Source: an uncultured Melioribacter sp. (lineage in GTDB: Bacteria; Bacteroidota; Ignavibacteria; Kapaibacteriales; Kapaibacteriaceae). Taken from it: a DNA stretch of 64,000 nt. Under the pieces are notes generated by a model. That model was given only the letters and a program-made list of their open reading frames with translations. It was not told where the DNA came from and did not search any database. Location of the stretch: the NCBI GenBank assembly GCA_964393485.1, contig CAYMTW010000003.1, positions 13,773 to 77,772 of the forward strand, read 5' to 3'. Below are positions 19,170 to 41,101 of the stretch, in pieces; the stretch's first letter is position 1, and each line of letters starts with the position of its first letter. The position numbers and the translations under genes were made by a program.

Positions 19170-19631
19170 ATGTCACTTAAAGAACGCCTCAAACAGCAGA
19201 AGTTTACCTCCGCCCAGCAGGAAGCCGTTCTTGGCATTCTCTCCTGCGCCGACATCATCAATCGTCGGATGGATGAACTGGTGAACCCCTTCAACATCAC
19301 CATCGCGCAGTACAATGTGCTGCGCATCTTACGTGGCGTTTATCCGGGCGGTCACCCCCGTGGCGAGATCACCTCGCGCATGATCCAGAAAGCACCCGAC
19401 GTCACGCGTCTGATCGACCGGCTGGAAATACTGGGCCTCGTGGTCCGCAGCAAAAGTCAAGATGATGGCCGTCTCTCCATGAGCACCATCACCGACAAGG
19501 GGCTTGCCCTTCTTTCAGAACTCGACCCCATCATCCGCCGCTTTGACCGTCAGCTCCGCTCGGCCCTTCCCGATCCCGATGCCACCGCCGTCTCAACGAT
19601 CATCGATCATCTCGTCGATGGGTTGGAGTAG
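19170..19631 (+). CDS. MarR-family transcriptional regulator
   Basis: Winged-helix block ITIAQYNVLRILRG..GEITSRMIQKAPDVTRLIDRLEILGLVVRSKSQDDGRLSMSTITDKG. Confidence 0.88.
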   Translation: MSLKERLKQQKFTSAQQEAVLGILSCADIINRRMDELVNPFNITIAQYNVLRILRGVYPGGHPRGEITSRMIQKAPDVTRLIDRLEILGLVVRSKSQDDGRLSMSTITDKGLALLSELDPIIRRFDRQLRSALPDPDATAVSTIIDHLVDGLE

Positions 19632-19748
19632 TTTGAGGTGTGAGGTTTTGGGTTTGGGGTGTGAGGTGTCATTCCTGCAAATGCAGGAAGCGTGTTGCAA
19701 CTGACTACATCATCCGTATCCCGTATCCCGCACCCCATACCCCTCTTG
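19631..19748 (+). repeat. Repeat locus A: GT-rich heptamers + GTCATTCC hairpin unit + C-rich CCGTATC-type heptamers
   Basis: 19631..19665 reads GTTTGAG GTGTGAG GTTTTGG GTTTGGG GTGTGAG. It is followed by GTGTCATTCCTGCAAATGCAGGAAGCG (hairpin TTCCTGCA/TGCAGGAA, 19672..19689). 19714..19748 reads CCGTATC CCGTATC CCGCACC CCATACC CCTCTTG. Confidence 0.9.
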
Positions 19749-20498
19749 CCCCTTTCCATCATCATCCCTGCCCTCAACGAAGAACGATCCATCGGCATCG
19801 TGATCGACTCCGTGCGGGAATATGTGGACCACGTTGTTGTTGTGGACAATGGATCAACCGACAGAACAGCCGAGGTGGCGCGCGATCATGGCGCAATGGT
19901 TGTGCATGAGCCGCAGCGCGGCTATGGGGCCGCCTGTTTGCGAGGCATTGAAGCCCTGCGCGAGATCCATCAACATTCGCCATCGGGCGTTGATCCGTCC
20001 CCCGGGCCAAGGCCCGGGGCTACTGTTGTCAAACGTCCCTCTTCATTTGTTCTTTTCCTCGATGCTGACGCTAGCGATCATCCCGAGGATGTGCGGGCGA
20101 TCATCGAGGTGATGCAAACGACGGACGTTGGGATGTGTCTAGGCAGCCGGACGACGGGGCTTGCTGATGCGGGTTCACTCACACCGCAGCAGAGGTTTGG
20201 GAATTGGCTTTCGACGCGGCTGATCGCATTGATCTGGAAGACGCGGTTCACCGACCTGGGTCCGCTAAGGGCCGTGCGCTGGGATGTCCTTGAGGAGCTT
20301 GACATGCAGGATCGCACCTGGGGCTGGACAGTGGAGATGCAGATCAAGGTGGCCCGCCACGGCATTGCTTTCCGCGAGATCCCCGTGCGGTATCGCCGTC
20401 GCATCGGTCAGTCGAAGATCTCTGGAACCGTCGTAGGTTCGGTCCGTGCGGGTGCAAAGATTCTCTCAACCATCGCGCGTCTGGCCCTGGGTCGCTGA
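19746..20498 (+). CDS. Family-2 glycosyltransferase (polyprenyl-phosphate glycosyltransferase-like)
   Basis: LSIIIPALNEERSIG, VVVVDNGSTDRT, FLDADASD. The ORF is open from GTG 19692, but 19692..19748 is repeat sequence (locus A). TTG 19746 gives the canonical MPLSIIIPALNEE. Confidence 0.8.
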   Translation: MPLSIIIPALNEERSIGIVIDSVREYVDHVVVVDNGSTDRTAEVARDHGAMVVHEPQRGYGAACLRGIEALREIHQHSPSGVDPSPGPRPGATVVKRPSSFVLFLDADASDHPEDVRAIIEVMQTTDVGMCLGSRTTGLADAGSLTPQQRFGNWLSTRLIALIWKTRFTDLGPLRAVRWDVLEELDMQDRTWGWTVEMQIKVARHGIAFREIPVRYRRRIGQSKISGTVVGSVRAGAKILSTIARLALGR

Positions 20499-21780
20499 CG
20501 CATCCCTGCTGGTCATCCTTATGGGAATGATCCAGCTTACGCTTCCGCATGTGGATGTTGCAGCATCCATGCCGGATCCGATCACCGTCTGGTACAACCT
20601 CTCGGCCGCGTGGCTTGGTCTGGTTGTGGCATTCTTCCGATGCCCTGCGCATCAGCGAGAAGCACTGCAACGTCGGGCGCGGACGGTTCTCATTTTAGCG
20701 GTTCTGTGCACGGCTCTTCCCAGCGGACTCTTCACCGATGATGCATTGCGGTATCAGTGGGATGGATGGCTGACCACGCATCGGGAAAGCCCCTTTACAG
20801 CAGCTCCCGAATCAGCTGATCTGCAGTATCTGCGCCATCCCACGGGCACGGCCATGCTCCCCGATGACCTACCGTATGCCGATATGCTGACAATCTACCC
20901 GCCGGGTGCGCAGCTAGTGTTTGCCCTAGCATCGTTGGCTTCAGGGGGCGATGCACTGCTGTGGAAGCTCTCGATGTGGGTACTCTTTGTAGCTCTGGGC
21001 GCAGCACTCTGGCGTGCAATGGATGCGGCACAGCGTCCATGGCTTCTGCTCGTGGGTCTGTCGCCTGTGGTGCTGCTGCACGGCTTTATCGACGTGCACA
21101 TCGACCTGGCCATGGCCTTCATGATGATGCTCGCATTTGCGGCACGTAACCGCGGATACATCATCGTCGGCGGCATGCTACTGGGTGCGGCCGTCACAAT
21201 CAAATACCTACCATTGCTTGCACTGCCAGTGTTGCTATCCGGACTGGAGCGACGCCACCAGTTGCGACTGACGATGGCAATGGTACTTAGCATAACGGTT
21301 ATCTACACTCCGTTTCTCGGACCGAATCTCTTCGGCTCGCTGGGTACGTTTACCGGATCCTGGCAGACGAACTCACTGATGTACACCTTCGTAGCATCGG
21401 TTGCCGGCGAATGGCTGACACGGCCCATCCTGCTGAGCCTGGCAATAGCTGCAACATCAGGCGTGGTCGTCCGGTGGCGACGCGAACCGCTCGTTGCCCT
21501 TGCGCTAACGCTCGTCGTGCTCTACGTCCTTTCGCCTGTGGTTCACCCGTGGTATCTGCTGGCGCCCCTTGCTCTCTTGCCAATGGTGCCGCTGCGCTCC
21601 ATGATCATCTGGACGGCTTCTGTGACTTTGTATGGGGCTGGCCTTTCAACGTACAAGGGCAGCGGTGTGTGGTTGGAACACCCCGCTGCCCTTGCTGTTG
21701 AATTTATTCCTGTAATGGTCGCTCTCGTTGCCGACGTGCGGCGTGGTCCTCTATCTCTTCTGGACGAGCACCGTGCGTGA
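20446..21780 (+). CDS. GT-C-fold polytopic membrane glycosyltransferase (DUF2029/GT87/PMT-like)
   Basis: About 11 TM helices. The loop DALRYQWDGW...TIYPPGAQLVFAL resembles polyprenyl-phosphate-sugar-dependent GT-C enzymes. Start uncertain: GTG 20446 (overlaps the GT2 gene) or ATG 20521. Confidence 0.45.
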   Translation: MRVQRFSQPSRVWPWVADASLLVILMGMIQLTLPHVDVAASMPDPITVWYNLSAAWLGLVVAFFRCPAHQREALQRRARTVLILAVLCTALPSGLFTDDALRYQWDGWLTTHRESPFTAAPESADLQYLRHPTGTAMLPDDLPYADMLTIYPPGAQLVFALASLASGGDALLWKLSMWVLFVALGAALWRAMDAAQRPWLLLVGLSPVVLLHGFIDVHIDLAMAFMMMLAFAARNRGYIIVGGMLLGAAVTIKYLPLLALPVLLSGLERRHQLRLTMAMVLSITVIYTPFLGPNLFGSLGTFTGSWQTNSLMYTFVASVAGEWLTRPILLSLAIAATSGVVVRWRREPLVALALTLVVLYVLSPVVHPWYLLAPLALLPMVPLRSMIIWTASVTLYGAGLSTYKGSGVWLEHPAALAVEFIPVMVALVADVRRGPLSLLDEHRA

Positions 21781-23832
21781 CTCGCCACCGGCGCGCAGCG
21801 TGACCACATACATGCCAGTTGCACCATCAAGCTCAACCGTCTGGTACTGGGCTGCCGAGCCAACGAAGGTCACGATACGGCCCATCACATCGCGCACTGA
21901 AACCTCGACACCTTCGGCACCGGCGATCGTAAAGGCACCCGACGTTGGATTCGGATACACAGCGATAGAGGTGCCTTCGATCAGATCGTCGACGCTCGTT
22001 GTTCCAACGAGGAAGTTTTCCGACCAGCGCTCACAGCCGGCTGTGTCAGAGATCAGAACACGATAGTTGCCTTCTCCGGAGATCTTGATCGTCCGTGATG
22101 TAGCACCGCTGATCTTCTTTCCTTCACGATACCACTGATAGTTCACAAGATCAACACTACAGGTCAGCTCATCGGCCTTGCGCGTGATGAGGGGTACCGT
22201 CAGACCCGGAGCGACAACGACCTTGATCGTGTCCGAGTTTTTGATGCACTCGTCAAAGCCCTTGATGCGGCAGTAGATCGTGTATGTACCAGTTTTCAGG
22301 TTGGTTGTCTTCAGCGTGTAGCTGGGTTCCGGATCCTTCGTGCCGTTGACGAACCACTCATACGAGGGATAACCGAGACGGGCCACGATCGGACGATCCA
22401 TTCCTTCGCAGATCTTCAGTTCGTTCGAATTCGGGCGAAGCTGCGTGCTCGGACCGCAGTCGAGCGCGGCTAGGAAGATGTCGTCGAAACCCTCTCCATT
22501 GTACCGAATGTCATCGAAGAACGCATACGTTTCAAAGATGCCGGCAACGTACGGGATGCCCTTGGCATCAATGCCTACACCCGTTACGGCGTCTTCATAG
22601 GGTCCACCGAAGGTTTTCACCCAGTCAACGTCGCCGTTTGACAGCAGGCGCATCACGAAGCCATCGCTTGCCCCGTATGACTCTTGCTGGAACGTCTCCA
22701 GAATCGTTGTACTGTCGAACGAGCCACCCACAAACATGTTACCCTTGGCATCAGCGACAATACACGACGCCGTTTCTTCGAAGATGCTTCCATAGCGACG
22801 CAGAAGCTCGAAATCTCCATCGCGGTTAACCTTGACCACGAAGACATCTGGATCGTTCTCGCCGTCGGCCTTGAGGGTTTTGGTGTCGAAGGTCGTTGTC
22901 AGACGCATCGTTCCTGCCAGCAACAACTTGCCGTCCACTGTGGTATTGGCACCAATCTGGAAGTCTGGCTCGCTTGAGCCGATACGCTTGCACCACAACG
23001 GCTGTCCCGATGCATTGAGCGCACGCACGAAGAAGTCCGTGCGGTTGACAAAGCTCTCAATTGTATTGCTACCGAAATTGACCATTCCGATGAAGTTGCC
23101 GACGGCATAGATACGGTCTCCGTTCGGCGTCACGTGAACATGAAGCGTCTGATCGTTATCCGCCGAACCAGCACCTTGCACCCATTGAACGTCACCATTG
23201 GCATTGAGCTTGGCAACAAAGGCATCGAGTTTGCCGGCAGAGGTGTACTTCTTCGTTCCGAACTGTCCTGATCCACCAATGCCGCCAGCCACATACACAT
23301 TGCCCGTTGAGTCAACGGCAAGTGAAGGGGCTCCTTCGTCGTATGATGGAGAACCAAAGACCTTTACCCATTGAAGGAGGCCCTCTTTGCTGATCTTGAC
23401 AACGAACATGTCCATCGACGATGGATCGATGCTCTCTATCTGCTCACCAGCAACGACGGCCACATCGATAAAGGCTCCGGCATAGTACGTGTTGCCCTTA
23501 TTATCGACCACGATGGAACGGCCTTCGTCAGCGTCCAGGCCGCCATGGGAAGCCGCCGTGGTGACGTTACCCTTCGAGTTGAAGCGGGCCGTGAAGACAT
23601 CGTAACTGCCCACTGACTGCAGGATAATTCCGCCAACGTCGAGTGAATCTGAAAAGGTGCCGATAAGGTTACATGAGCCGTCCGCGCCCACCTGAAGTTG
23701 TTCAACCTTATCGAAGCTCGGACCTCCGAGCGTCTTGATCCAGGTGATACGCTGTGCTTGGAGCGTCAGAGTGCATGAGATCGCTACCAGCATCATGGTG
23801 ATGATGCTTAGGCGTGCGGATGAGCGAATCAT
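21751..23832 (-). CDS. 693-aa SBBP-type beta-propeller protein with Ig-like modules and T9SS CTD
   Basis: Signal peptide. Repeated units YDVFTARFNSKGN, DMFVVKISKEGLLQW, DAFVAKLNANGDVQW, DFFVRALNASGQPLW, DVFVVKVNRDGDF, DGFVMRLLSNGDVDW. Ig-like modules (YEWFVNG, YQWYREGKKISGATS). CTD IAVYPNPTSGAFTI..GMYVVTLRAGGESRTVLVQKR. Confidence 0.75.
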   Translation of the reverse strand: MIRSSARLSIITMMLVAISCTLTLQAQRITWIKTLGGPSFDKVEQLQVGADGSCNLIGTFSDSLDVGGIILQSVGSYDVFTARFNSKGNVTTAASHGGLDADEGRSIVVDNKGNTYYAGAFIDVAVVAGEQIESIDPSSMDMFVVKISKEGLLQWVKVFGSPSYDEGAPSLAVDSTGNVYVAGGIGGSGQFGTKKYTSAGKLDAFVAKLNANGDVQWVQGAGSADNDQTLHVHVTPNGDRIYAVGNFIGMVNFGSNTIESFVNRTDFFVRALNASGQPLWCKRIGSSEPDFQIGANTTVDGKLLLAGTMRLTTTFDTKTLKADGENDPDVFVVKVNRDGDFELLRRYGSIFEETASCIVADAKGNMFVGGSFDSTTILETFQQESYGASDGFVMRLLSNGDVDWVKTFGGPYEDAVTGVGIDAKGIPYVAGIFETYAFFDDIRYNGEGFDDIFLAALDCGPSTQLRPNSNELKICEGMDRPIVARLGYPSYEWFVNGTKDPEPSYTLKTTNLKTGTYTIYCRIKGFDECIKNSDTIKVVVAPGLTVPLITRKADELTCSVDLVNYQWYREGKKISGATSRTIKISGEGNYRVLISDTAGCERWSENFLVGTTSVDDLIEGTSIAVYPNPTSGAFTIAGAEGVEVSVRDVMGRIVTFVGSAAQYQTVELDGATGMYVVTLRAGGESRTVLVQKR

Positions 23833-23846
23833 TGCGTTCCTCCCGG

Positions 23847-24434
23847 TCAGGGCTGCAAGCCCCTTCCCGATTTCTTGATGGAATCCGTGGTTTTCAGTTC
23901 TTCGATGATCGCGTCGAGAATGCCGTTGATGAACGTACCACTCTTGTCCGTCGAGTATCTCTTTGCTAATTCGATGACTTCGTTAATGGTTACCTTGATG
24001 GGGATTTCCTGACAAGAAAGCAGCTCTGCAATGGCCATGCGCATCAGGATAATATCCAGCGCGGCAATGCGGTCGAACTCCCAGTTCTGGGCATGCTTTT
24101 GAATCAGTTCTGTACCGGCAACCTTTCCGTCGATCGCGGCAGCGATTACGCGCCTGGCGTATTCGATATCATCATTATTCCACGAGATCGGGATGTCGGC
24201 CTCCAATTCGTGCACCTCGTCCGGACGCAGAATGCGGGTCCCTTCGGGCGCATCCTTGGAATCGAACGTGAACTGACGGTAGAACACATGGCGAAAGGCA
24301 ACGTCGACTTCGACATCGCCGCCATCAATGGCCGACAGGATCTGCAGGACCTTTTCCCGGGCCAGGTGCCGCGAGCCCCTAACCGTTGTCTTGTGACTAA
24401 CGGGAAACTCGTTCGACTGTTCTGAATCTGTCAA
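23847..24434 (-). CDS. nusB: Transcription antitermination factor NusB
   Basis: REKVLQILSA.., AALDIILMRMAIAELL, PIKVTINEVIELAKRYSTDKSGTFINGILDAI. The N-terminus is longer than usual. Confidence 0.88.
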   Translation of the reverse strand: MTDSEQSNEFPVSHKTTVRGSRHLAREKVLQILSAIDGGDVEVDVAFRHVFYRQFTFDSKDAPEGTRILRPDEVHELEADIPISWNNDDIEYARRVIAAAIDGKVAGTELIQKHAQNWEFDRIAALDIILMRMAIAELLSCQEIPIKVTINEVIELAKRYSTDKSGTFINGILDAIIEELKTTDSIKKSGRGLQP

Positions 24435-24449
24435 TGGATCTCCACCGTA

Positions 24450-25538
24450 TTAGACGCCACGAATTGTTGGACTGCCAACATACGAACCGTGAACGTGCCG
24501 CACCTGGCGCAGACGTTCCTCGGCAATGGCGTTGGAGGCTTCGATGGTGAGAAGATTTCGCTCAGTAGCAATGCGGAAGATGTTAGCCGTGATGTCGTAC
24601 ACACCTTCGGCCTGACGCATGACCTTGGCCCGATCATAGCCTTCGACTTCAGAGGCCACGTTCATCAGTCCACCGGAGTTGACGACGTAATCCGGAGCGT
24701 AGAGGATTCCCTTGCTTCGCAGCATTTCGGCATGCTTCTTCTCGTCCTTGAGCTGATTGTTTGCACCACCGCAGACGATTGAGCACTGCATGGCGGGAAT
24801 GGTATCATCATTGAGAATGGCACCCAGAGCGTTCGGTGAGAATACATCGCAAGCTGTCGTATAGACAGCATCCGGTGCGATGACCTCTGCGCCGGTTCGC
24901 GCGGCAAGAGCCTTGACCTTGTCGTCGTAGATATCTGAAATGAGCACGCGAGCCCCATCCTTGACGAGATGTTCGACGAGGTAGGTGGCAACATTGCCGG
25001 CACCTTGCACAACAACTGTCTTACCCGCGAGCGAATCATTGCCCCACGTGGCCTTTGCCGATGCACGCATACCTGAATACACACCGAGGGCCGTTACTGG
25101 ACTCGGATCACCCGAACCACCGGGTCCGCCGATACCAGTCACGTACTTCGTTTCCATGCGGATCCATTCCATGTCCCGCACGCTGGTTCCGACGTCTTCA
25201 GCTGTGATGTAGCGTCCACGGAGGCTCTCAACCATCCGTCCGAAGGCCCGGAAGAGTCCTTCGCTCTTGTCTGTGCGCGGATCACCTATGATCACGGCCT
25301 TACCGCCGCCGAGGTTCACACCGCTGACGGCCGCCTTGTAGGTCATGCCCCGGGAGAGACGGAGTACATCCGTGATGGCGGCCTCGTCGGATTCATACTT
25401 CCAGAAGCGTGTGCCACCCAAGGAAGGGCCGAGCGAAGTGTTGTGAATGCCGATGATGGCACGAAGGCCGGTGACTGTATCGGAGCAGAGAACCACTTGC
25501 TCGTGGCCCATGCCCGAGATCGTATCGAAGATGTGCAT
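24450..25538 (-). CDS. Leucine (Leu/Val/Phe) dehydrogenase
   Basis: Collinear with Bacillus-type LeuDH: LGPSLGGTRFW.Y, GMTYKAAVSGVNLGGGKAVIIGDP, VQGAGNVA, CGGANNQL. Start at M16 (cat 25536..25538); the ORF is open to 25583. Confidence 0.9.
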   Translation of the reverse strand: MHIFDTISGMGHEQVVLCSDTVTGLRAIIGIHNTSLGPSLGGTRFWKYESDEAAITDVLRLSRGMTYKAAVSGVNLGGGKAVIIGDPRTDKSEGLFRAFGRMVESLRGRYITAEDVGTSVRDMEWIRMETKYVTGIGGPGGSGDPSPVTALGVYSGMRASAKATWGNDSLAGKTVVVQGAGNVATYLVEHLVKDGARVLISDIYDDKVKALAARTGAEVIAPDAVYTTACDVFSPNALGAILNDDTIPAMQCSIVCGGANNQLKDEKKHAEMLRSKGILYAPDYVVNSGGLMNVASEVEGYDRAKVMRQAEGVYDITANIFRIATERNLLTIEASNAIAEERLRQVRHVHGSYVGSPTIRGV

Positions 25539-25615
25539 ACGGTCCAGACGTCGGTGAGGGGGGAAACTATACCCCCTCATCATGCAGACAGGGGGCTGGG
25601 GGGCCGCAAAATACG

Positions 25616-25642
25616 AACGGCCACCCTTTTGGGGTGGCCGTT
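25616..25642 (-). terminator. Putative intrinsic terminator after the RRM-protein gene
   Basis: Stem AACGGCCACCC / GGGTGGCCGTT with a TTTT(G) loop. On the minus strand it is followed by CGTATTTTG. It lies between the rbp stop (25667) and the LeuDH start. Confidence 0.5.
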
Positions 25643-25666
25643 ACAGCTCGTGATCGCAGGATTGGA

Positions 25667-25948
25667 TCAGTGACGCGGACCGCGGTCTGACCGCATAGGA
25701 CGCTCATCACGTGGACGTGCTTCATTTACCACGAGAGGACGTCCGCCAAGATTGCGGCCATTCATCGCCTCGATCGCCTGATTGCCAGCGGCAGCGTCCG
25801 GCATTTCAACAAAACCGAACCCGCGCGAACGCCCCGTGAACTTGTCCTTCACAACGGAAGCTGACTGCACGGTGCCGAACTCTGAGAACGAAGCACGAAG
25901 CTCGTTATCGTCCATTGAGTACGGCAAGTTGCCTACATAGATGTTCAT
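25667..25948 (-). CDS. Single-RRM RNA-binding protein
   Basis: RNP2 MNIYVGNLPY, RNP1 RGFGFVEM, and a Gly/Arg-rich tail. Confidence 0.92.
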   Translation of the reverse strand: MNIYVGNLPYSMDDNELRASFSEFGTVQSASVVKDKFTGRSRGFGFVEMPDAAAGNQAIEAMNGRNLGGRPLVVNEARPRDERPMRSDRGPRH

Positions 25949-27908: not shown

Positions 27909-27913
27909 GGGTC

Positions 27914-32664: not shown

Positions 32665-33399
32665 ATGCGAAGAGACATTACTTCGTGGCATAGCCCACGC
32701 CTCGACAAGACCATGGAGATCTGCACCTATGGTCATTTTGGCACGCCCATCCTGATGTTCCCGAGTGCCGCTGCCGACTATCTCGAGTATGAGCGGTTTC
32801 ATTTGATCGATAGCGTTAAAGAGCCCCTTGAGCAGGGCCGGATCAAGATCTTCTCGATCAACAGCATCAACAGCGAGGCCTGGCTCAACGATCTAATGGA
32901 AGGACGTCAGAAAGCCATCCGCCATCAGCAGTACAATGCCTACATCGTTGATGAGGTGGTGCCGTTCATTCACAACGATTGCGGCGGAGCACTACCGATC
33001 CTTACCTCCGGCGTTTCCCTTGGTGCCCTGCATGCCGTCAACACCATGTTCCGACGTCCGGATTTGTTCAGCGGCACCCTTGCTATGAGTGGCATCTACG
33101 ACCTCAAGGCCTACACGCAGGGCTACTTCGACGAGGACTGCTACTTCAACTCGCCAATGGATTATCTGCCCAATCTCAAGGAAGGGGCTATCCTGGATCT
33201 GCTTCGCACTGATAAACACATACACATCGCAACCGGCAGCGGCGCCTACGAAGATCCATCGGCCAGTGTCCTCTTTGGTGAGGTCCTCAGTGCCCTTTCA
33301 ATCCCCCACACCATCGATGTGTGGTCAAATGAGTGGACCCATGACTGGCCCACCTGGCGGGCAATGTTGCCGGCAATGGTAGCCAGGTGTGAGGTGTGA
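32665..33399 (+). CDS. Esterase-family (esterase D / putative esterase) hydrolase
   Basis: TYGHFGTPILMFPSAAADY and nucleophile elbow GVSLGALHAVN. The last codons and the stop lie in repeat locus B. Confidence 0.6.
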   Translation: MRRDITSWHSPRLDKTMEICTYGHFGTPILMFPSAAADYLEYERFHLIDSVKEPLEQGRIKIFSINSINSEAWLNDLMEGRQKAIRHQQYNAYIVDEVVPFIHNDCGGALPILTSGVSLGALHAVNTMFRRPDLFSGTLAMSGIYDLKAYTQGYFDEDCYFNSPMDYLPNLKEGAILDLLRTDKHIHIATGSGAYEDPSASVLFGEVLSALSIPHTIDVWSNEWTHDWPTWRAMLPAMVARCEV

Positions 33400-33525
33400 G
33401 GTTTGGGGTTTGGGGTGTGGGGTGTGAGGTTCCGTACCTCCGCAACTCTCTACCCCCGTAACTCCGTAATTCCGTAATTCCGTAATTCCGTAATTCCGTA
33501 CCTCCGTAATTCCGTAATTCCGTCC
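33387..33525 (+). repeat. Composite repeat locus B: six GT-rich heptamers + twelve TCCGTAAY-type octamers
   Basis: 33387..33428 reads GTGTGAG GTGTGAG GTTTGGG GTTTGGG GTGTGGG GTGTGAG. After a GT junction (33429..33430), octamers run from 33431: TCCGTACC TCCGCAAC TCTCTACC CCCGTAAC TCCGTAAT x4 TCCGTACC TCCGTAAT x2 TCCGTCC. The array fills the whole gap between two convergent genes. Confidence 0.95.
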
Positions 33526-33764
33526 TATCCTTCCATTTCATCAAAATCGATGTCATCGTCATCGAACGAGCCGCCGCCGATCTCGCCATCGCTCGATGCT
33601 GCGTCATAGATCTCGCGGGCTTCATCGAGATCATCTTCGAAGACGGACAGTTTGTAGCCGTCGGACTGACTATCTTGAAGTTTATAGTCTATCCCTGCAG
33701 CTTTCAGTTTTGAAGCTAGCAATTGGGCTTCGAGTTCGCTGGTAAATGTTGCTAGAAGGATCAT
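33525..33764 (-). CDS. Small acidic protein, DUF2007-like
   Basis: 79 aa. MILLATFTSELEAQLLASKLKAAGIDY resembles DUF2007. Asp/Glu-rich tail. Confidence 0.45.
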   Translation of the reverse strand: MILLATFTSELEAQLLASKLKAAGIDYKLQDSQSDGYKLSVFEDDLDEAREIYDAASSDGEIGGGSFDDDDIDFDEMEG

Positions 33765-33776
33765 TTCGTCACCTAC

Positions 33777-34412: not shown

Positions 34413-34413
34413 A

Positions 34414-36096
34414 TCAATCACGAGTGAGTTTGCGGTATGATATACGATGTGGACGGTCAGCCTCGATGCCCAGGCGCTTGCGACGGTCTTCCTCGTACTG
34501 CGAGTAGTTTCCATCGAACCACACCACCTGACTGTCACCTTCAAAGGCCAGGATATGCGTGGCGATCCGGTCCAGGAACCACCGGTCGTGGCTGATGACC
34601 ACAGCGCAGCCGGCAAAGCCCAGGAGGGCTTCCTCGAGAGCTCGGAGCGTGTTCACATCAAGGTCATTTGTCGGTTCGTCCAGCAGGAGAACATTGGCCC
34701 CCTCTTTGAGCATTTTGGCCAGGTGGACGCGGTTACGTTCTCCACCCGAGAGCTGCGTGACCTTCTTTTGCTGATCGCTACCACTGAAGTTGAAACGTGC
34801 CACGTAGGCACGAGAATTCACTTCGCGTGACCCCAGCTGTACAACATCAAGACCGTCGGAGATCTCTTCCCAGATGGTCTTGTTCGGATCCAGTGGCCGA
34901 TTCTGATCGATATAGCCCAGCTTGACGGTGTCCCCGATGGAGAAGGAGCCCGCATCGGGGTGGAGTTGATCTGCGATCATCTTGAAGAGCGTGGTCTTAC
35001 CGGCACCGTTCGGACCGATGATGCCAATGATACCGCCCGGTGGTAGGGAAAACGATAAGTGTTCGTAGAGAAGTTTATCACCAAACGACTTGGACACATC
35101 GACAGCATCAACGACCTTGTCACCCAGGCGCGGTCCAGCTGGAATGAAGATCTCCATTTCCTCGTTTCGCTTGATGGATTCTTCTTCGAGCATCTTCTCA
35201 TACGCCGAGATACGCGCCTTGCTCTTGGCATGACGTCCCTTGGGGTTCATCCGAACCCACTCAAGCTCTTCCTTCAGGGCCTTCTGACGCTTTGATTCCT
35301 GCTTCTCTTCCTGGGCAAGGCGTGCCTGTTTCTGTTCCAGCCAGTTCGTGTAATTACCCTCGAACGGAATTCCATGGCCGTTGTCGAGCTCAAGGATCCA
35401 CCCGGCAACGTTGTCAAGGAAGTACCGGTCGTGCGTCACAGCAATGACCGTGCCTTCGTAGTCGTGCAGGTGGCGCTCAAGCCAACCCACACTCTCGGCA
35501 TCAAGGTGGTTGGTCGGTTCATCCAGCAGGAGCACGTCTGGCTTCTGTAGCAGCAACCGTACCAGCGCTACGCGACGTCTCTCACCGCCGGAGATCACAT
35601 TGATCGGTGTGTCAGGGGGCGGACAGCGCAGAGCATCCATAGCCATTTCGAGCTTCGAGTCAATGTCCCATGCTCCCATGGCATCGATCTTTTCCTGAAG
35701 CTTGGCCTGCTTATCCAGCAGCTTATCAAAGTCCGCATCGGGATCGGCGAACTGCTCGCTGATAGCGTTGTAGTCCTTGAGAAGCTGCACAGCTTCCTGA
35801 GCACCCTCCTCAACGATCTCTCGTACAGTTTTGTTCGGGTCGAGTTCGGGCTCCTGGGACAGGTACCCGAAAGTGACATCTTTGTTCTTTGTGATCTGCC
35901 CGACGTACTCGTCATCGAGTCCGGCAATGATCTTCAAAAGCGTTGACTTTCCGGACCCATTCAAGCCCAAAACGCCGATCTTGGCGCCGTAAAAGAAGCT
36001 TAGGTAAATGTCGCGTAAAACTTGACGGTTGGGCTTATAGACCTTGCCCACCCCGACCATGCTAAAGATGATTTTCTGGATTTCTGGTTGTGCCAT
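34414..36096 (-). CDS. ettA: Energy-dependent translational throttle protein EttA (ABC-F)
   Basis: Collinear with E. coli EttA over the full length. Two cassettes (GLNGSGKST / LSGGERRRVAL; GPNGAGKTT / LSGGERNRVHL). Confidence 0.93.
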   Translation of the reverse strand: MAQPEIQKIIFSMVGVGKVYKPNRQVLRDIYLSFFYGAKIGVLGLNGSGKSTLLKIIAGLDDEYVGQITKNKDVTFGYLSQEPELDPNKTVREIVEEGAQEAVQLLKDYNAISEQFADPDADFDKLLDKQAKLQEKIDAMGAWDIDSKLEMAMDALRCPPPDTPINVISGGERRRVALVRLLLQKPDVLLLDEPTNHLDAESVGWLERHLHDYEGTVIAVTHDRYFLDNVAGWILELDNGHGIPFEGNYTNWLEQKQARLAQEEKQESKRQKALKEELEWVRMNPKGRHAKSKARISAYEKMLEEESIKRNEEMEIFIPAGPRLGDKVVDAVDVSKSFGDKLLYEHLSFSLPPGGIIGIIGPNGAGKTTLFKMIADQLHPDAGSFSIGDTVKLGYIDQNRPLDPNKTIWEEISDGLDVVQLGSREVNSRAYVARFNFSGSDQQKKVTQLSGGERNRVHLAKMLKEGANVLLLDEPTNDLDVNTLRALEEALLGFAGCAVVISHDRWFLDRIATHILAFEGDSQVVWFDGNYSQYEEDRRKRLGIEADRPHRISYRKLTRD

Positions 36097-36109
36097 GCCG
36101 CAAAAATAG

Positions 36110-36183
36110 GTTTTAGGTGTGAGGTGTGGGGTGTGGGGTTCCCTCCGTAACTGAGTAACTCAGTAATTCCGTAACTCAGCAAT
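36110..36183 (+). repeat. Composite repeat locus C: four GT-rich heptamers + five TNNGTAAY octamers
   Basis: GTTTTAG GTGTGAG GTGTGGG GTGTGGG, then junction GTTCCC, then TCCGTAAC TGAGTAAC TCAGTAAT TCCGTAAC TCAGCAAT. Same order and GGGGTTCC junction as locus B. Confidence 0.9.
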
Positions 36184-37119
36184 CACCTCTGCTATCATCA
36201 GTGCCGCCAGCTTGGCGGTTCTGCCATCGAGGTCGAAGCGGGGGTTGAGTTCGACTACATCGAAAGCAGCAAGTGAGCCGCTGCGTGCGGCATGGCGCAG
36301 GAATGCGGCAACCTCTTGGGGTGCAAAACCGTCAACTGCGGGAGCACTCACGCCTGGGGCATAGGCGGACGTGAATGCGTCCATATCCAGCGAGACATAC
36401 ACGCGTTGCGATGCGGCAGAGGCTTCCCATGCCTGGCCCCATGCATACCCAGTTTCATGGTCACGGATCTCGTCGAGCATCCAGACCTGCATGCCATGCT
36501 CGCGAACAAACGCGAGGTGTGAAGCAGCCACACTGTGATGTTGCAGGCCGAACTCCGCAAAGCCCCCTGGAAGAAGATGCGATTCGTTCAGCGACAACAA
36601 CTGATGAAAGGGCGAGCCCGAATGGGCGCGACCTTCCTTCAGGGGGCGAACGTCCGCGTGCGCATCGATATTGATGACGCCGTAGGGGTTGCCGGCAGAC
36701 TCCATGGCCCGGATCGTGGGCCAGGCACAGTCGTGTCCGCCGCCGAGAATGATCGGCAGATAGCCGTTGCGGAGCACCTCGGAGACCACATCGTGCTGCT
36801 CATCGTGGATCTGCTCAAGAGTTTTCCCGTCCGCGTCGATGTCCCCGGCATCGGCGATCACGAGACGTCCCGAGGCAAGCTGTTCATGCATACCGTTGAT
36901 GGTCAGCCTTGACAATGCCCGGCGGATAGCCTCAGGGCCGGCAGCCGCACCTGAACGCCCACCATTGCGCTCAACGCCAATATCCTGCGGCACACCGATG
37001 AGCACGCAGACCTTTGCAGCATCGGAGGGGATGTCCGACACAGGGACGACCACATCACCGATGCGTAGGTCGTCCGGATCGTTCGACCGAAACATCACCT
37101 CCGGGGGTGTCTGACGCAT
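36160..37119 (-). CDS. hutG: Arginase-fold enzyme, formimidoylglutamase-like
   Basis: Mn-ligand motifs GGGHDCAW, INIDAHADVR, SLDMDAF. GVPQDIGVERNGGRSGAAAGPEAIRRAL is typical of formimidoylglutamases. Start at M18 (cat 37117..37119). The last 8 codons and the stop lie in repeat locus C. Confidence 0.6.
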   Translation of the reverse strand: MRQTPPEVMFRSNDPDDLRIGDVVVPVSDIPSDAAKVCVLIGVPQDIGVERNGGRSGAAAGPEAIRRALSRLTINGMHEQLASGRLVIADAGDIDADGKTLEQIHDEQHDVVSEVLRNGYLPIILGGGHDCAWPTIRAMESAGNPYGVINIDAHADVRPLKEGRAHSGSPFHQLLSLNESHLLPGGFAEFGLQHHSVAASHLAFVREHGMQVWMLDEIRDHETGYAWGQAWEASAASQRVYVSLDMDAFTSAYAPGVSAPAVDGFAPQEVAAFLRHAARSGSLAAFDVVELNPRFDLDGRTAKLAALMIAEVIAELRNY

Positions 37120-37141
37120 GGAACGTCGAAACTTCACTGTG

Positions 37142-40100
37142 TTACCTGGAGATGACAAACGGTGTGGCAAACCGCGAAGCAGCCGTCTCGATGCTTACGA
37201 CGTACATGCCCCCTGTCAGAGATGATGGCACATCAAATGCCTGCTCACCGAAAACGAGGTCACCCCGATGGATGGTAGCTACCGTCCGACCCATGATGTC
37301 CCGAATGACAACCGACACACCTCGTAGAAGATCCTCGCGCACAACGTTCAAACGGATCGTGCCATTATCCATGACCGGATTCGGAACCACATTGACGGTG
37401 ACAGCTGAGGCAAGATCTTCCTCTTCCATAACAGAGGTCGTGCCAGCCGTACCGACCAGGCGTACAAGTCGAGCAGGGTTGCGCTCGTCGTTACAGTACA
37501 CACGGGCGGAGCCTGACGTTGTGCCGGCATCCGGGCGCTCGAAGGCCATCGTCACCACCAGTGAATCGCCTGGTGAAAGAGTTGTGGGAAGCGTCTTGGA
37601 TGTGGTTGCCACGCTGAAGTGCTTACGCACCGAGAAGATCCCGATACTATCAACACGCAGGCCGGCGTCGTTCGCAGCGCGCACTACAAACGTTCGCTCC
37701 ACGCGCACGGGCGTTGGTGTTTCGAACTTGAGCGTATCTGTGCTGACTTGAATCGTCGGCTTGAGGGCCACGATGAACTGCATCCACGCTGAATTGCCGA
37801 AATCAGGTTCAAAGACTTTGATCGTGTTGCCGCCCGACTTGAACAGAAGGCTCCCTGTTCCCAGCTGGTCGCGAAGGAACCAGAAATCCAGACCGTACCC
37901 TTCCCGGTTCACGAGCTCAAAGTCATAGCATCCGGGTTCCAGCTTGAGGTCATAGGTCAAGAGCTTTTCGCTCTCCATCTGGTCCACTTCCTGAATGACC
38001 GTACCGTCAGACTTGCGAAGTCTCCAGCTGTATTGATCCTCCGCTTGCTTGTTGGTGCGCAGCACGATCTGCAGATCATTGTAGTAGGAAGGGGGCATCA
38101 CAAACGCTGAACTGCGCGTATTGTTCTGCGCATACTCGTCGCCTGTTGCGCCCACGGATGCCGTGAACGTCTGATTACCCGCGGCGGAGGGCCACTCTGG
38201 AACCGGCAGGGTTACGGTATCCTTGGCCAAGAAGCCGAGCTTGCCCTTCCAGGTGTAACTGGACTGCTTGGATCCCTTCGCGCCGTAGGTGATGGTGCAC
38301 TCGGTGAGGTCGTTTGAACCGGTGTTCTGGATGACCACCTCGGGGTCGCCGCAGATCGGGTTCATACGACTGTAGTACTCCCACGTGTTCGGCTTGCGGA
38401 TATCAGTGATGGCCACATCGGTCTTGAAGTTGGGAGCCCCGTATCCGATGAGTTGCGTAGAGACTTCCCAGCGGCCCCAGTTTTCTTCAGCAGCTTCCTT
38501 CTTCACACCATAGTCGATCGTCAGGCTGGTCTTGCCCTGCGTGAACGGCGTGGCATCAAACTCATAGAGGTCCACCATTTCGCCCGGACACCAACCAGTG
38601 CGATCGATAAGCCACGTCCCCCCTTGCGGAAAGACCGGATTATTACCGCATTCCTTCCACAGACGCCATGTGAAGCGCTCCGTACCGTCGAGCGAAATGA
38701 AGTGATTGCGCGGACAGAATTCGGCGCAGTTCGTAGCATTGCTGAACTCGTGCCCGGAGGTGATGGCCTTGAGGCGGAACATCTTCGCTTCGGGATTCAG
38801 CGACACCGTAACAGGCGCAATGGCTTTGTTGGTAATGACATCCGGATACCATGCTCCGCGCTCGTACACCACCTGGTCGATCTGCTTCACATCACGAGGG
38901 GGCGTCCCCTTGATGAACATGAACGTAAGGTCGATCAGCTCCTGCTGATTACCGGCCGAAAGCGTCACGTTATTGCGTAGCAATGGGGCGAAGTCGGTCA
39001 CATCCACTTCCCAGCGAAAGCCCTTTGGTCCAAGGTCGAGTCCGATGCCGTAGGGCGTGATGTAGCGACCGATCTCGAAGTCCACGATGGGACTGAAATA
39101 CGGAGAGAGCGTTTTGCGGATCGTCGTCTGTGCGGCAACGACCAGCGAATCCACGCGCACACCGATCTCGTTGAAGAGCGGCACCACACCGGCCTCCTGC
39201 ACCGTAAGTGTGTCGGTAGCAATGGTCGGATGGTCGGGATCATCGAAGCGGTATATCCGCGGCTGCACCGGACGGTTATAGCGCACCAGTGAGGTGCGAC
39301 GCGGTTCGATATCGATGTCGATGTCTGCGCGGTTCGTGGCAACGTTGATGTCTGCGCCCACTTCAAACGACACCACCGGACGTGACGAATTTATCTCTGT
39401 AAGGTAGCCGAGTTGTTCACCCCCGAGCCGCTGCAGCGATGGGATTCCGAACATCGTGGCGTTGTATCCGCTGATCGACTGGTCGCGAGCAACATTGGGA
39501 CTCGTGATGTGTTCAGCACCGTAGTAGGCAATGAGCTTGGTGAACTGCGGATGCTGATCATTGACGGCACGATTCATCCACGAGCGGATGGTTGTTGAAT
39601 CCAGCGCAACGTTCCACACCTGAAACTCATCGAGCATTCCTTCATAGGAGCCCGAGCCCCCTGACCCGATCTGAAAACGCGTGATGCCCTTCATGCTTCG
39701 GATTCGTGTGTTGCCTTCGTGAAAGAGCGTCCCGTTGAGGTAGATCCGCATCAGGCCCGACTTGACAGACTTCGTGAATGCCCAGTGGTTCCAGCGCCCT
39801 TCCGTGGACTCCACCGGAGCGCCCTTTTCGATACGGTCATAGGCACCAGTCTTCGGGTCGTACCCGCAGTCCCAGTAGGCCACCTGGTTGTCCCATGGCA
39901 GGTGAATGTTGACCACACGCCGGCCTGTGGCATCGTACGCTTCCATGGTGTTGTGTGCGCGAGGCATTTTATTGGGGTCGCCCCAGCACCAGAAGGAGAT
40001 CGTAATCTCGTCCGAGACATCCTGTCCGATCGTACCCGGAACGTTGATCACATCTCCCGCCGTGAACGCGTAGGCGCGGCGGGATCCATCATCCACGGTG

Positions 40101-40936
40101 CCGGTGTTTGCGGCCGAACCCGACGATAGCGAGACGCCAGGCGAAGCGCTCATGCACGAGATGTCGATGACGATGTCCGATGTTCCATCCCAGCTGAAAG
40201 GGGCTGAGAATGGAAGATGATTGTCGCCCTGCACGAACGTCACATTGCGACGCACCACGGTCTGCATGTCAGAGCCATTGTCGAGATATCGTTCCACACC
40301 GCGTCCGGCCGTGGCATATGTGACCTGGCGCAGCTTCACGGTCAGCAACGTTACCTGACCCGCTGCAATCGCGTTGACGGAGATACCATGGATGGGTCCG
40401 GCAGCAATGCCGGCCCCCTTCAGCTCCGATGCTTTCCAGACGTAACGTCCACGTCCGCCGGTGGCGCGCAAAATCGCAGCATTGCCTTCTCCGCCCGTGC
40501 CGATCTTCTTGAACTCTCCCACGGCACCGCCCTTGCGGGTAACCGTGGTAGCCTGGTACCGGATTCGTGGCGTTGCAAACGCCGTCGAGTACGGGAATGA
40601 ATCTGGCGTAGCTCCCCTGACCATGAAGTTGGGCTGCATCATGCGTGTGGAGTCGAACTCCCCCGTAGAGTCACGGAGCATCGTGTACGTCAGATAGTCC
40701 CACTCACCGCAGTCGAACCTATCCTGCGTGGTTGCCGGATCACACTTGAGCGTGTAGAGCATCACCACCTTCTCGTAGCGGCCAGGGGGCGGAAACAGCC
40801 ACGTCCCGGAGCGCTTGGTGGTGTCTTTGAAGGTCAGTGTCTTTACGTAAATGGTATCCCCTGATTGAGCTTTACCTACAACGGCAAAAGCAACGAGAAG
40901 TAGGAGACGTGCAATGAGTCGTGTCATGTGACGCAT
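37142..40936 (-). CDS. 1264-aa T9SS cargo: PNGase-F-like beta-sandwich halves + LamG-type insert + Ig-like module + CTD
   Basis: Signal peptide. YTLKCDP..CGEWDY and GHEFSNATNCAEFCPRNHF..NPVFPQGGTWLIDRTGWCPG resemble PNGase F-type domains. LamG-like ISFWCWG..WNHWAF..IYLNG..LDEFQVWNVAL. CTD VNVVPNPVMDNGTI..GMYVVSIETAASRFATPFVISR. Confidence 0.6.
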   Translation of the reverse strand: MRHMTRLIARLLLLVAFAVVGKAQSGDTIYVKTLTFKDTTKRSGTWLFPPPGRYEKVVMLYTLKCDPATTQDRFDCGEWDYLTYTMLRDSTGEFDSTRMMQPNFMVRGATPDSFPYSTAFATPRIRYQATTVTRKGGAVGEFKKIGTGGEGNAAILRATGGRGRYVWKASELKGAGIAAGPIHGISVNAIAAGQVTLLTVKLRQVTYATAGRGVERYLDNGSDMQTVVRRNVTFVQGDNHLPFSAPFSWDGTSDIVIDISCMSASPGVSLSSGSAANTGTVDDGSRRAYAFTAGDVINVPGTIGQDVSDEITISFWCWGDPNKMPRAHNTMEAYDATGRRVVNIHLPWDNQVAYWDCGYDPKTGAYDRIEKGAPVESTEGRWNHWAFTKSVKSGLMRIYLNGTLFHEGNTRIRSMKGITRFQIGSGGSGSYEGMLDEFQVWNVALDSTTIRSWMNRAVNDQHPQFTKLIAYYGAEHITSPNVARDQSISGYNATMFGIPSLQRLGGEQLGYLTEINSSRPVVSFEVGADINVATNRADIDIDIEPRRTSLVRYNRPVQPRIYRFDDPDHPTIATDTLTVQEAGVVPLFNEIGVRVDSLVVAAQTTIRKTLSPYFSPIVDFEIGRYITPYGIGLDLGPKGFRWEVDVTDFAPLLRNNVTLSAGNQQELIDLTFMFIKGTPPRDVKQIDQVVYERGAWYPDVITNKAIAPVTVSLNPEAKMFRLKAITSGHEFSNATNCAEFCPRNHFISLDGTERFTWRLWKECGNNPVFPQGGTWLIDRTGWCPGEMVDLYEFDATPFTQGKTSLTIDYGVKKEAAEENWGRWEVSTQLIGYGAPNFKTDVAITDIRKPNTWEYYSRMNPICGDPEVVIQNTGSNDLTECTITYGAKGSKQSSYTWKGKLGFLAKDTVTLPVPEWPSAAGNQTFTASVGATGDEYAQNNTRSSAFVMPPSYYNDLQIVLRTNKQAEDQYSWRLRKSDGTVIQEVDQMESEKLLTYDLKLEPGCYDFELVNREGYGLDFWFLRDQLGTGSLLFKSGGNTIKVFEPDFGNSAWMQFIVALKPTIQVSTDTLKFETPTPVRVERTFVVRAANDAGLRVDSIGIFSVRKHFSVATTSKTLPTTLSPGDSLVVTMAFERPDAGTTSGSARVYCNDERNPARLVRLVGTAGTTSVMEEEDLASAVTVNVVPNPVMDNGTIRLNVVREDLLRGVSVVIRDIMGRTVATIHRGDLVFGEQAFDVPSSLTGGMYVVSIETAASRFATPFVISR

Positions 40937-41043
40937 AGATGTTGGTTCGTAAGAATTGGCCGTACCGAAAATACGCCTGAACGGATGACGACATGTTCCA
41001 ACGGCTGAAGCCGTGGGCTAATGTGCGGACACAATCGCGCTTG

Positions 41044-41101
41044 AATTCCCGCTTTCGTGGGAATGACCTTCACCTCAAACCTCACACCCCAAACCTCACA
41101 C
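41044..41101 (-). repeat. Repeat locus D: GT-rich heptamers + GTCATTCC hairpin unit (read on the minus strand)
   Basis: The minus strand reads GTGTGAG GTTTGGG GTGTGAG GTTTGAG GTGAAG GTCATTCCCACGAAAGCGGGAATT. The hairpin is TTCCCGC/tttc/GTGGGAA at 41046..41063. Same module order as locus A. Confidence 0.9.

Follow-up and report, generated by a model that had tools for sequence, protein, structure and literature searches.

Tandem arrays of heptanucleotides in the spacers between bacterial genes have been in the literature since at least 2007 from Cyanobacteria, Bacteroidetes, Beggiatoaceae and Xanthomonas, and they have no accepted origin or function. The STRR of Cyanobacteria are a related class of heptamer repeats. 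According to Mrazek 2007, as cited in PMC4679880, heptanucleotide repeats are the commonest long simple repeats (LSSR) in most of the genomes studied, and slippage was suggested for them. MacGregor 2015 (PMC4679880) described intergenic arrays of the heptamer TAACTGA in Beggiatoaceae, 15 Cyanobacteria and 5 Bacteroidetes; these arrays are mixed with other heptamers, strains differ in them by indels in steps of 7 nt, and contigs end in the repeats. Rehm 2015 (PMC4692102) described heptamers forming G-quadruplexes (G4), GGGNATC and GGGGAYT, in Xanthomonas and Nostoc, with the rule that the G-rich strand is sense within 50 bp past a stop codon or antisense within 50 bp upstream of an open reading frame (ORF). 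Among abundant hairpins, the Neisseria dRS3 element (ATTCCC-N8-GGGAAT) is the core of the 28-nt NTS (PMC1797815, PMC11893778); both NTS and its relatives (SRM) occur widely and are found on the flanks of ssnA genes (Chenal 2025, PMC11893778), and SsnA binds NTS/SRM as single-stranded DNA (ssDNA) only and cuts a few nucleotides upstream (PMC11893778). The same Neisseria hairpin core is also treated as a REPIN with a Group 2 RAYT partner (bioRxiv 10.1101/2021.07.10.451892). Here we analysed a stretch of 64,000 nt (the window; 55.8% G+C) from an uncultured Melioribacter sp. of the Kapaibacteriaceae (assembly GCA_964393485.1, contig CAYMTW010000003.1, positions 13,773 to 77,772, forward strand), several spacers of which contain arrays of GT-rich heptamers (H7), arrays of octamers (O8) and a hairpin (P). 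Proteins of the window belong to clusters built at 90% identity, or have near homologs, that carry the source names "Bacteroidota bacterium", "Candidatus Kapabacteria" or "Candidatus Kapaibacterium". We interpret these spacers, with a probability of about 0.6, as being filled by two unrelated classes of repeats that are common in this lineage, namely LSSR-type arrays and a dRS3/NTS-like hairpin.

The window was scanned by regular expression for GT[G/T]T[G/T][A/G]G (H7), GTAAYTCN (O8) and the GTCATYCC hairpin (P). H7 heptamers were found at 19631-19665 (+, locus A), 33387-33428 (+, locus B), 36110-36137 (+, locus C) and 41074-41101 (-, locus D), O8 octamers at 33434-33523 (+, locus B), 36147-36183 (+, locus C) and 49777-49887 (units on the - strand, locus E), and the P pattern at 19668-19689 (+, locus A), 41046-41067 (-, locus D) and twice at locus E (49891-49912, +, and 49933-49954, -); none of the three occurred elsewhere in the 64 kb. 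A first-pass annotation of the window, made from its letters only, had proposed three module types at five loci. Both the modules and the loci proved real: Tandem Repeats Finder picks up every array of the window, and compared with dinucleotide-preserving shuffles of the window there were 15 matches to the two-unit H7 pattern (0.35 expected), 15 to the two-unit O8 pattern (0.03 expected) and 4 to the P pattern (0.00 expected). That list of five loci left out a sixth array (locus F; GTCACTG x3, 52067-52087) and a further module, Q, at locus D. The 64 kb thus contain four H7 loci and three O8 loci, every one inside a spacer, and each of the composites A to E occupies one entire intergenic spacer.

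H7, O8 and the GTCACTG units of locus F are microsatellite-like arrays of the LSSR or "heptamer direct repeat" class. H7 and O8 consist of head-to-tail units of 7 and 8 nt, within the 5-11 nt of that class, in runs longer than chance; in the window and its relatives they lie mainly in spacers, with many loci of the same unit and with copy-number polymorphism between strains; and different unit types share one spacer at B, C and E, in relatives and in other phyla. As in the described arrays, tandem units lie in spacers at many loci, unit types stand side by side, strains differ by whole units, contigs end in the arrays, the arrays are often directly at start or stop codons, and some O8 units of the window (GTAACTGA) even contain TAACTGA. 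The window differs in its units, GTKTGRG and the 8-nt GTAAYTCN, and in its Kapabacteria-like host, which had not been covered before. It also differs in that orthologous spacers could here be followed across species, which showed that the position is kept and the units turn over.

The loci of relatives, numbered with an L below, were found through look-ups of the flanking proteins, and identities refer to the parts aligned by blastn. They comprise strains nearly identical to the window (L128-L131, with 99.7% identity for L128), a relative of ~85% identity (L141-L144) and relatives of 73-77% identity that keep the gene order (L125-L127 and L132-L140); L265, L268 and L269 also keep the gene order. 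Spacers D and E contained arrays in every relative fetched, and spacers B and C in every relative that covers them with the gene order kept. At locus D, H7 begins 0-12 nt from the TAG in all fetched lineages except the L126 and L268/L269 types. The arrays there are differing mixtures of the four H7 variants, with 4 units in the window, 2 in L128, 4 in L132, 6 in L134, 5 in L135, 2 in L137 and 4 in L138. In four lineages, O8 and H7 occupy locus B between one and the same pair of stop codons, with 6 H7 units in the window, 5 in L137, 5 in L138 and 9 in L140. Locus E holds O8-type octamers or 16-mers, 3 to ~17 among the lineages, and ~25 AATGACS heptamers in a row in L265; its hairpin varies from the P doublet of the window to GGGTCGCAGCATGCTGCGACCC in L132-L138, and an unrelated repeat based on GGGAC and small hairpins is found in L268/L269. 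At locus C, the units are O8 and H7 in the window, AGTGACS x20 in L137, L139 and L140, GTCACTN x3 in L138, and CATTGGT plus AGTACCC in L126. The ortholog of locus F in L137 (1-25) is an array of TGACGAG (x3.6). Unit types in relatives include GTCATYG, AATGACS, AGTGACS and GTACTGG.

Whole units are thus gained and lost in place, even between strains that are 99.7% identical, and between species at the same spacer. The positions of the arrays are old, and their content turns over. The first-pass annotation had proposed to compare orthologous spacers for length variation and for presence or absence of the element; length did vary, in whole units, but presence or absence of a whole element was not seen at any orthologous spacer, since these always hold arrays that differ by units or modules. 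Contigs of short-read assemblies that carry the neighbouring genes terminate inside the arrays, which shows that the arrays are multi-copy; five Logan contigs end within the H7 array of locus B, at 33414-33426. An assembly artefact was ruled out, because the repeats recur in independent NCBI, JGI, ENA and Logan assemblies. The parts themselves are of known kinds; what is new is their host, their units and the evidence that arrays keep their positions as units turn over in concert. Many sequenced relatives allow the same spacers to be followed in this clade, which shows arrays in fixed spacers with unit turnover that is apparently concerted across loci.

Arrays extend until coding sequence is met, and they often supply the stop codon; their G-rich strand is usually sense and lies between the stop codon and a downstream hairpin. 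Under the interpretation of two repeat classes, units would turn over by replication slippage or unequal exchange within a locus, and a single set of units, particular to the species, may be maintained at many loci by ectopic gene conversion between arrays. Any sequence-specific function of the arrays is probably slight; they would be filler of spacers or of the transcribed 3' untranslated region (UTR), tolerated at gene ends only.

The first-pass annotation had instead argued, from junctions that it took to be conserved, that H7-O8 and H7-P spread as composite units rather than arising by local slippage, as would be the case for a non-autonomous mobile element or for templated synthesis. The junction between H7 and O8 is indeed an identical G-GTTCC at loci B (GTTCC at 33429..33433, +) and C, as had been claimed, and also at the B ortholog in L140, which is ~76% identical; at locus B of L137 and L138 it reads GTTTCTTCC. 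In addition, H7-O8 at spacer C is restricted to the window lineage, relatives having other heptamers there, so that a copying of the B-like composite into C, e.g. by conversion between arrays, is plausible; and L126 has a two-module composite of other units at two spacers in the same order. Several loci therefore do share modules, order and orientation. However, one can read GTTCC as an O8 unit cut short (GT...TCC), and slippage is seen directly in the whole-unit differences. The H7-P junction is not conserved: it is GT (overlapping) at A, GTGAAG at D, GTGAAT in L128 and GTT in L132-L136. The "GAG-GTG" once thought to be common to A and D is only the next, truncated H7 unit, as the bases after H7 always begin with GT, continuing the phase of the array. 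With more copies aligned, conservation was thus lost for H7-P and kept for H7-O8 at B, C and L140, and apart from the known loci and their orthologs, no H7-O8 or H7-P junction was found in any of the fetched loci. Unit variants follow one another in a different order at each locus. Reading the five loci revealed no terminal inverted repeats and no target-site duplications, and the composite ends are gene ends. At B, D and E, different species have orthologous arrays, in which units or modules change but never the whole. The features of a MITE or of a composite mobile element are accordingly absent. Essentially all ORFs of the window, scanned with Pfam, encode housekeeping, secreted and regulatory proteins; no transposase, as the first-pass annotation had already noted, and no recombinase or GIY-YIG nuclease was found among them. 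Loci A to E are not copies of one mobile composite, and the spread of composites as units is highly improbable.

A hint of a process acting across loci came from L126, which is 73% identical to the window. Both of its spacers C' and D' contain (GTACTGG)n followed by (GTACCAA/TGACCAA/TTACCAA)n, and these arrays match the H7-then-O8-or-P of the window in position, order and orientation. It is very unlikely that the same new pair of units was reached independently at two spacers, which implies some force across loci: arrays may convert one another, or a trans-acting factor may select the units. This evidence comes from two spacers of one lineage. Ectopic conversion would explain both GTTCC at B and C and GTACTGG at the two compared spacers of L126. 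Going further, a genome-wide process might write or maintain a species-specific vocabulary of 7-8-nt units at fixed spacers containing 3' ends, rather than locus-by-locus drift. Dedicated-factor ectopic conversion, seeding by Ssn nicks or co-evolution with an RRM-1 protein could be candidates for such a process. We consider this a doubtful proposition. If it were true, sets of arrays would switch their unit together, as from H7 to GTACTGG in L126, while keeping position, order and polarity, and the long-puzzling heptamer arrays of bacteria would gain a mechanism and possibly a function. If none of these leads holds, the window simply adds a new host and new unit sequences to a known class of repeats.

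The trans-acting factor could be a protein for which the arrays serve as multivalent platforms and which co-evolves with the units, a candidate being an RRM-1-type RNA-binding protein that would bind G/U/A-rich 7-8-mers of the 3' UTR. The variation of H7 is limited to two positions over deep divergence (58 of 61 units are GT[G/T]TG[A/G]G), but this tally comes from a counting pattern that pre-selects H7-like units. The simultaneous unit switch at the two L126 spacers would also fit a shared binder. The window encodes an RRM_1 RNA-binding protein of 93 aa (25667-25948, -; Pfam E 9.5e-24), a candidate reader of G/U-rich arrays. RbpB, an RRM-1 protein of B. thetaiotaomicron, binds three tandem G/U/A 8-mers and not a C/U motif, and RNA-binding proteins were also proposed for the TAACTGA arrays (MacGregor 2015, PMC4679880). 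RRM proteins and heptamer arrays may also overlap in phyletic range. On the other hand, it is the C-rich strand that is transcribed at locus C, and many unrelated unit types occur in one genome. We regard binding platforms as an improbable explanation of the arrays.

The motifs are not confined to the window, a possibility that the first-pass annotation had left open, and occur well outside it. In a scan of one genome per species, at least 119 stretches contained three H7 units. Among the H7 matches listed, the hosts belong to Cyanobacteria, Bacteroidota (Saprospiraceae, Chitinophagaceae), Chloroflexia, Planctomycetota, Ignavibacteria and other groups; other short arrays, or the reverse complement of the array itself, often come next in the same spacer; of 99 arrays, 29 have a stop codon of the same strand no more than 20 nt from their 5' end, and 8 have one of the opposite strand no more than 20 nt from their 3' end; and of 116 arrays, 18 have a strong GC hairpin within 100 nt 3' of them and 4 have one within 100 nt 5' of them, some of these hairpins being plain intrinsic terminators. 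The order from stop codon to G-rich array to hairpin is thus general across phyla, and loci A, D and E of the window fit it. One complete chromosome of a Saprospiraceae metagenome-assembled genome (MAG), OZ245751.1 (L006, L020, L046, L058, L083; also L112), has at least seven separate GTTTGAG arrays, several of which precede their own reverse complement and so form long perfect hairpins.

This polarity raises the possibility that the arrays are transcript-end or insulator elements. G4s or R-loops in the 3' UTR might pause or terminate transcription or block 3' exonucleases, or the G-free, C-rich complements might load Rho, with P or another downstream hairpin completing a terminator. The order from stop codon to array to hairpin is significantly polar across phyla and matches the GGGNATC rule (PMC4692102); in the window, the G-rich strand is sense after the stop codon at A, B and D and antisense 13 nt from an ATG at C. 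Arrays also persist at spacers containing 3' ends over ~25% divergence even as the unit changes, and a consensus scan placed no canonical intrinsic terminators, and no sigma-70 promoters, at the loci. However, stop codons that the unit carries on one of its strands can account for the polarity. TGA (H7) or TAA (O8) occurs in all three frames of one strand, and the other strand is free of stops; an array of such units can therefore grow into a gene end in one orientation only. The array of locus C is antisense, just upstream of a promoter-like box, the number of units is free to vary (2-9), and unrelated units substitute for each other. H7 mixes GGGG- and GAGG-units, so that four tracts of three G are usually absent, and there is no preference for four units, unlike in the heptamers of Rehm. 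Locus B has three GGGG runs and locus A two runs of at least three G, the GAG units have only GG, and no H7 array of the window has four runs of at least three G. G-quadruplexes may be possible for GGGG-rich stretches, but would not be general.

Predicted folding also divided the loci. The whole spacer of locus A can form a long imperfect hairpin in which H7 pairs with C-rich heptamers, with P at the tip (-49 kcal/mol, z -2.87; none of 200 shuffles was as stable), and the P doublet of locus E forms a 23-bp stem, with -60.4 kcal/mol (z -6.4) on the + strand and -55.8 kcal/mol (z -7.1) on the - strand, i.e. the long hairpin of an inverted REP doublet. Loci B, C and D did not fold beyond shuffles (z -0.78, +0.33, -1.93, +0.83). 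Only locus A and the E doublet are therefore more stable than shuffles, and the arrays have no common structure; a general hairpin or terminator role of the arrays was rejected for this reason. We regard a role of the arrays at transcript ends as unlikely, though between its convergent genes the E doublet itself may also work as a strong hairpin in both directions. A known structured RNA family was ruled out by the lack of any Rfam match, either in the whole window at the gathering threshold or at 19000-50500 with E <= 1. CRISPR was dismissed because there are no spacers of that kind, and telomere-like ends because the loci are internal.

The hairpin P appears to belong to another class. All four copies in the window begin with GTCAT, and their stems change in a compensatory manner (ATTCC/GGAAT versus ATCCC/GGGAT), so that P is an oriented hairpin with a 5' GTC. 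The copy of locus A (19666..19692, +) is GTCATTCC-TGC-AAAT-GCA-GGAA, in which GT also belongs to the last, truncated H7 unit. With 8 mismatches to the 28-nt NTS, this copy has diverged furthest among those of the window. The copy of locus D (41044..41070, -) is GTCATTCC-CAC-GAAA-GCG-GGAAT, the stem of which has an A.C mismatch. At locus E, two copies form an inverted doublet (49889..49956; 49891-49912 on + and 49933-49954 on -) with a 20-nt spacer between the convergent CCP and TMEM164 genes, similar to a REPIN or an NTS doublet. A metagenome scan for GTCATTCCYRCGAAAGYRGGAAT gave at least 140 copies on at least 120 contigs with 32-71% G+C. Among the copies listed, 112 of 140 read GTCATTCCCGCGAAAGCGGGAAT, both variable stem pairs are Watson-Crick in 136 of 140, including 24 double compensatory changes, and most have CCAG or CCAT directly 3'. 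An inverted partner lay within 110 nt downstream in 73 of the 127 copies listed, compared with 30 of 127 in the upstream control, which is the architecture of the E doublet. A small GIY-YIG ORF (..VYILAS.RNGTLYIGVT..) adjoins the hairpin in 8 of the 140 copies listed (L147, L149, L170, L188, L219), in agreement with the Ssn/NTS association of Chenal et al. 2025. H7 preceded the P-like hairpin in none of the 140 copies listed. In sequence, orientation, compensatory stem changes and inverted-doublet architecture, P thus matches a hairpin that is abundant across phyla.

P shares with dRS3, NTS and SRM the 5' (C)GTCAT, the palindromic ATYCC...GGRAT stem, the GAAA loop and the set orientation, as well as the inverted doublet, the CCAG-like 3' bases in one copy and the abundance of close variants across phyla, sometimes flanking small GIY-YIG genes. 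The dRS3 pattern ATTCCC-N8-GGGAAT is matched exactly at D only (41045-41064); the E copies have ATCCC...GGGAT and the A copy ATTCC...GGAAG. Unlike NTS (CGTCATTCCCGCGMAVGCGGGAATCYRG), which no P copy matches with one mismatch or fewer, the P copies have 4 (D), 5 (E2), 6 (E1) and 8 (A) mismatches. The published SRM pattern, HGTCWYN(0-2)YYVSBRHN(0-5)WNVSBRGN(0-2)RNCYNB, was matched by none of the four P copies, owing to the TGC/GCA stem, and by nothing in the window (0.64 matches expected); it also misses this stem variant in the metagenome, i.e. 21 of the 140 copies listed. The C after the palindrome, the most crucial base for SsnA binding (PMC11893778), is missing in P at A and D, the latter having a T instead. 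A cd10448 GIY-YIG (ssn) gene was found neither in the window, by motif scan and Pfam, nor in 20 related loci, by motif scan. Since P fails both the NTS and the SRM patterns, we report it as an NTS-like hairpin, which resembles these families, and do not assign it to them. By analogy with Chenal et al. 2025, it may be recognised as ssDNA by an Ssn-type GIY-YIG nuclease encoded elsewhere in the genome.

Other mosaic repeats share features with these spacers. Classic REPs begin with a 5' GTAG, which P lacks. Like REP/REPIN-RAYT elements and BIMEs (PMC3116915, PMC2817692), the P copies are short, GC-rich extragenic palindromes that occur in an inverted doublet (E) and in mosaics with other repeats. 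In contrast to those systems, there is no RAYT gene in the window, whose ORFs gave no Pfam match to Y1_Tnp, and relatives carry another hairpin, starting with GTAGGG, at the same spacer. The neisserial NIME is likewise a modular intergenic mosaic with dRS3-type hairpins, syntenic positions and strain-variable repeat numbers, but it consists of dRS3 pairs flanking RS units of 50-150 bp, whereas the partners of P are arrays of 7-8-nt units that are not bracketed by it. The first-pass annotation had recognised no described element in the modules, yet each part is of a described kind: the arrays are like those of PMC4679880 and PMC4692102, and P resembles the dRS3/NTS/REPIN hairpins, for which Ssn nucleases and, in Neisseria, a RAYT transposase have been reported as partners. 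For P, this is one of the outcomes that the first-pass annotation had itself named as refuting its view.

The position of P next to the arrays suggests a further explanation, by which the hairpins seed the arrays: an Ssn-type nick 5' of P, repaired with slippage, would duplicate the 5' arm or flank into (NGTCATT)n and O8. Ssn cuts a few nucleotides upstream of NTS (PMC11893778), and on the 5' side of three of the four P copies an array is 0-6 nt away. The O8 unit GTAATTCC is 1 nt from the P 5' arm GTCATTCC, which itself occurs as a unit inside the O8 array of locus E, and (CGTCATT/GGTCATT)n is found at P/O8 spacers in relatives (L265 at E, L126 at C', L138 at D). In the metagenome contigs L183 (about 358-450) and L230, the 5' arm (GTCATTCCCGC plus 7-10 nt) is present three times immediately upstream of the full hairpin. 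However, tandem repeats near the hairpin are rare among the 129 metagenome copies listed: a low threshold gives 5 on the 5' side and 1 on the 3' side, and a high one gives 2 and 1. H7 is not similar to P, the arrays of B and C have no P, and most of the cross-phylum H7 arrays listed lack such a hairpin. Seeding by hairpins is therefore very improbable as the source of the arrays. Some arrays may be related in sequence to the 5' arm of NTS-like hairpins, the targets of Ssn nucleases, which were described only recently.

Several observations weigh against the interpretation of two unrelated repeat classes with locally turning-over arrays. The same four H7 variants (GT[G/T]TG[A/G]G) persist at B and D in five lineages of ~75% identity and recur in other phyla, which is hard to obtain by slippage and drift and points to selection or to a biased generating process. 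Conversion between arrays is a step that we infer, the concerted change having been seen at two spacers of one relative. The failure of P on the NTS (one mismatch or fewer) and SRM patterns loosens its tie to the second class. An array lies immediately 5' of three of the four P copies, which would not be predicted if P and the arrays were independent. Finally, the rule on stop codons may be a survivorship effect and is then weak evidence on function.

The loci differ in detail. At locus A, the H7 array (19631..19665, +) consists of the five heptamers GTTTGAG, GTGTGAG, GTTTTGG, GTTTGGG and GTGTGAG, and its first G is the last base of the TAG of a gene of the MarR family (by Pfam). Downstream of P, the C-rich heptamers CCGTATC, CCGTATC, CCGCACC and CCATACC, followed by CC (19713..19745, +), are an imperfect reverse complement of H7; the first-pass annotation was right about them, and they pair with the H7 array. 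They appear to reach the likely TTG start of a GT2 gene at 19746, so that spacer A extends from the MarR TAG to this start. At locus B, the H7 array (33387..33428, +) has six heptamers, the TGA of the esterase gene (33397-33399) being inside the second. The O8 array (33434..33525, +) has ~11 octamers, among them GTACCTCC, GTAACTCC and GTAATTCC (Tandem Repeats Finder: period 8, 8.5 copies, score 115). The convergent DUF2007 gene (33525-33764, -), whose stop is 0-2 nt from the end of the array, closes the spacer.

At locus C, the H7 array (36110..36137, +) has four heptamers, with the G-rich strand antisense to both neighbours, followed by GTTCC (+CTCC) and the O8 units GTAACTGA, GTAACTCA, GTAATTCC, GTAACTCA and GCAATCAC (36138..36183, +). 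The O8 array runs into the arginase-family gene (36160-37170, -), covering its stop and last codons, and the 5' end of the H7 array is 13 nt from the ATG of an ABC-F gene (36096, - strand), with a TATTTTTG box between them, so that the spacer extends from the arginase-family stop to this box, 4 nt ahead of the ATG. The claim that all five loci begin 0-15 nt from a stop codon thus holds for A, B, D and E, but at C the H7 end is near a start codon. At locus D, the H7 array (41074..41101, -) has four heptamers on the sense strand, 12 nt past the TAG of an SDR gene (41114-41878, -). On the 3' side of P lies module Q (about 40960..41040, -), which contains GATTGTRTCCGCACAATAGCCCACGGCTTCAGCCGTGGG and a 7-bp hairpin, CCCACGGCTTCAGCCGTTGG (40998-41017). 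Q is single in the window and forms tandem units of ~85 nt (x5) in L132-L134 (about 10830-11280); a window search for further copies of Q, or of the GGGTCGCAGCATGCTGCGACCC hairpin of relatives, found none. Spacer D runs from the SDR stop towards the GTATTTTCG box of the next gene.

At locus E, bounded by the convergent CCP and TMEM164 stops, the O8 array (49777..49887, -) begins 2 nt past the TGA of the CCP gene (+ strand). It has ~14 octamers: GTACCTCC x6, GAACCTCC x2, GTAATTCA, GTAACTCA x2, GTATTTCC, GTCATTCC and GTAATTC (score 120). The locus F array, GTCACTG x3 (52067..52087, +), sits between a beta-lactamase-family gene and a DUF3050 gene (52074-52847, -), to which its reverse complement gives the TGA. 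Divergent spacers, containing promoters only, had no arrays.

The TATTTTTG and GTATTTTCG boxes (window 36097-36109 and 40950-40975) are conserved in spacers C and D of relatives, and the arrays end at them. The former is only 4 nt before the ABC-F ATG, and the latter is just 5' of the start of an N-glycanase-like gene. We take this box to be similar to the -7 promoter element of Bacteroidota. In L137 (15637-16248; also in L139 and L140), a PF05635 gene (23S_rRNA_IVP), which is presumably Avd-like, is inserted in spacer C between inverted heptamer arrays, with AGTGACS x20 on its upstream side and CGTCACT x6 on its downstream side; L138 lacks this gene and has GTCACTN x3 only.

In practical terms, arrays of this kind interrupt short-read assemblies, give rise to spurious ORFs and provide neighbouring genes with stop codons. 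A 45-nt repeat family built on GGGAC and small GC hairpins fills spacer A in L141 (7996-8426, x9; also in L142-L144) and spacer E in L268 (10700-10860) and L269. In L141 it is annotated as a protein of 156 aa without a Pfam match, which is probably a spurious ORF. The assembly of L140 and L038, GCA_943372295.1 (CALRYC01), is titled as a MAG of "Chitinophaga pinensis". L140 is, however, syntenic with the window, ~76% identical to it and has the same arrays, so that this name looks wrong.

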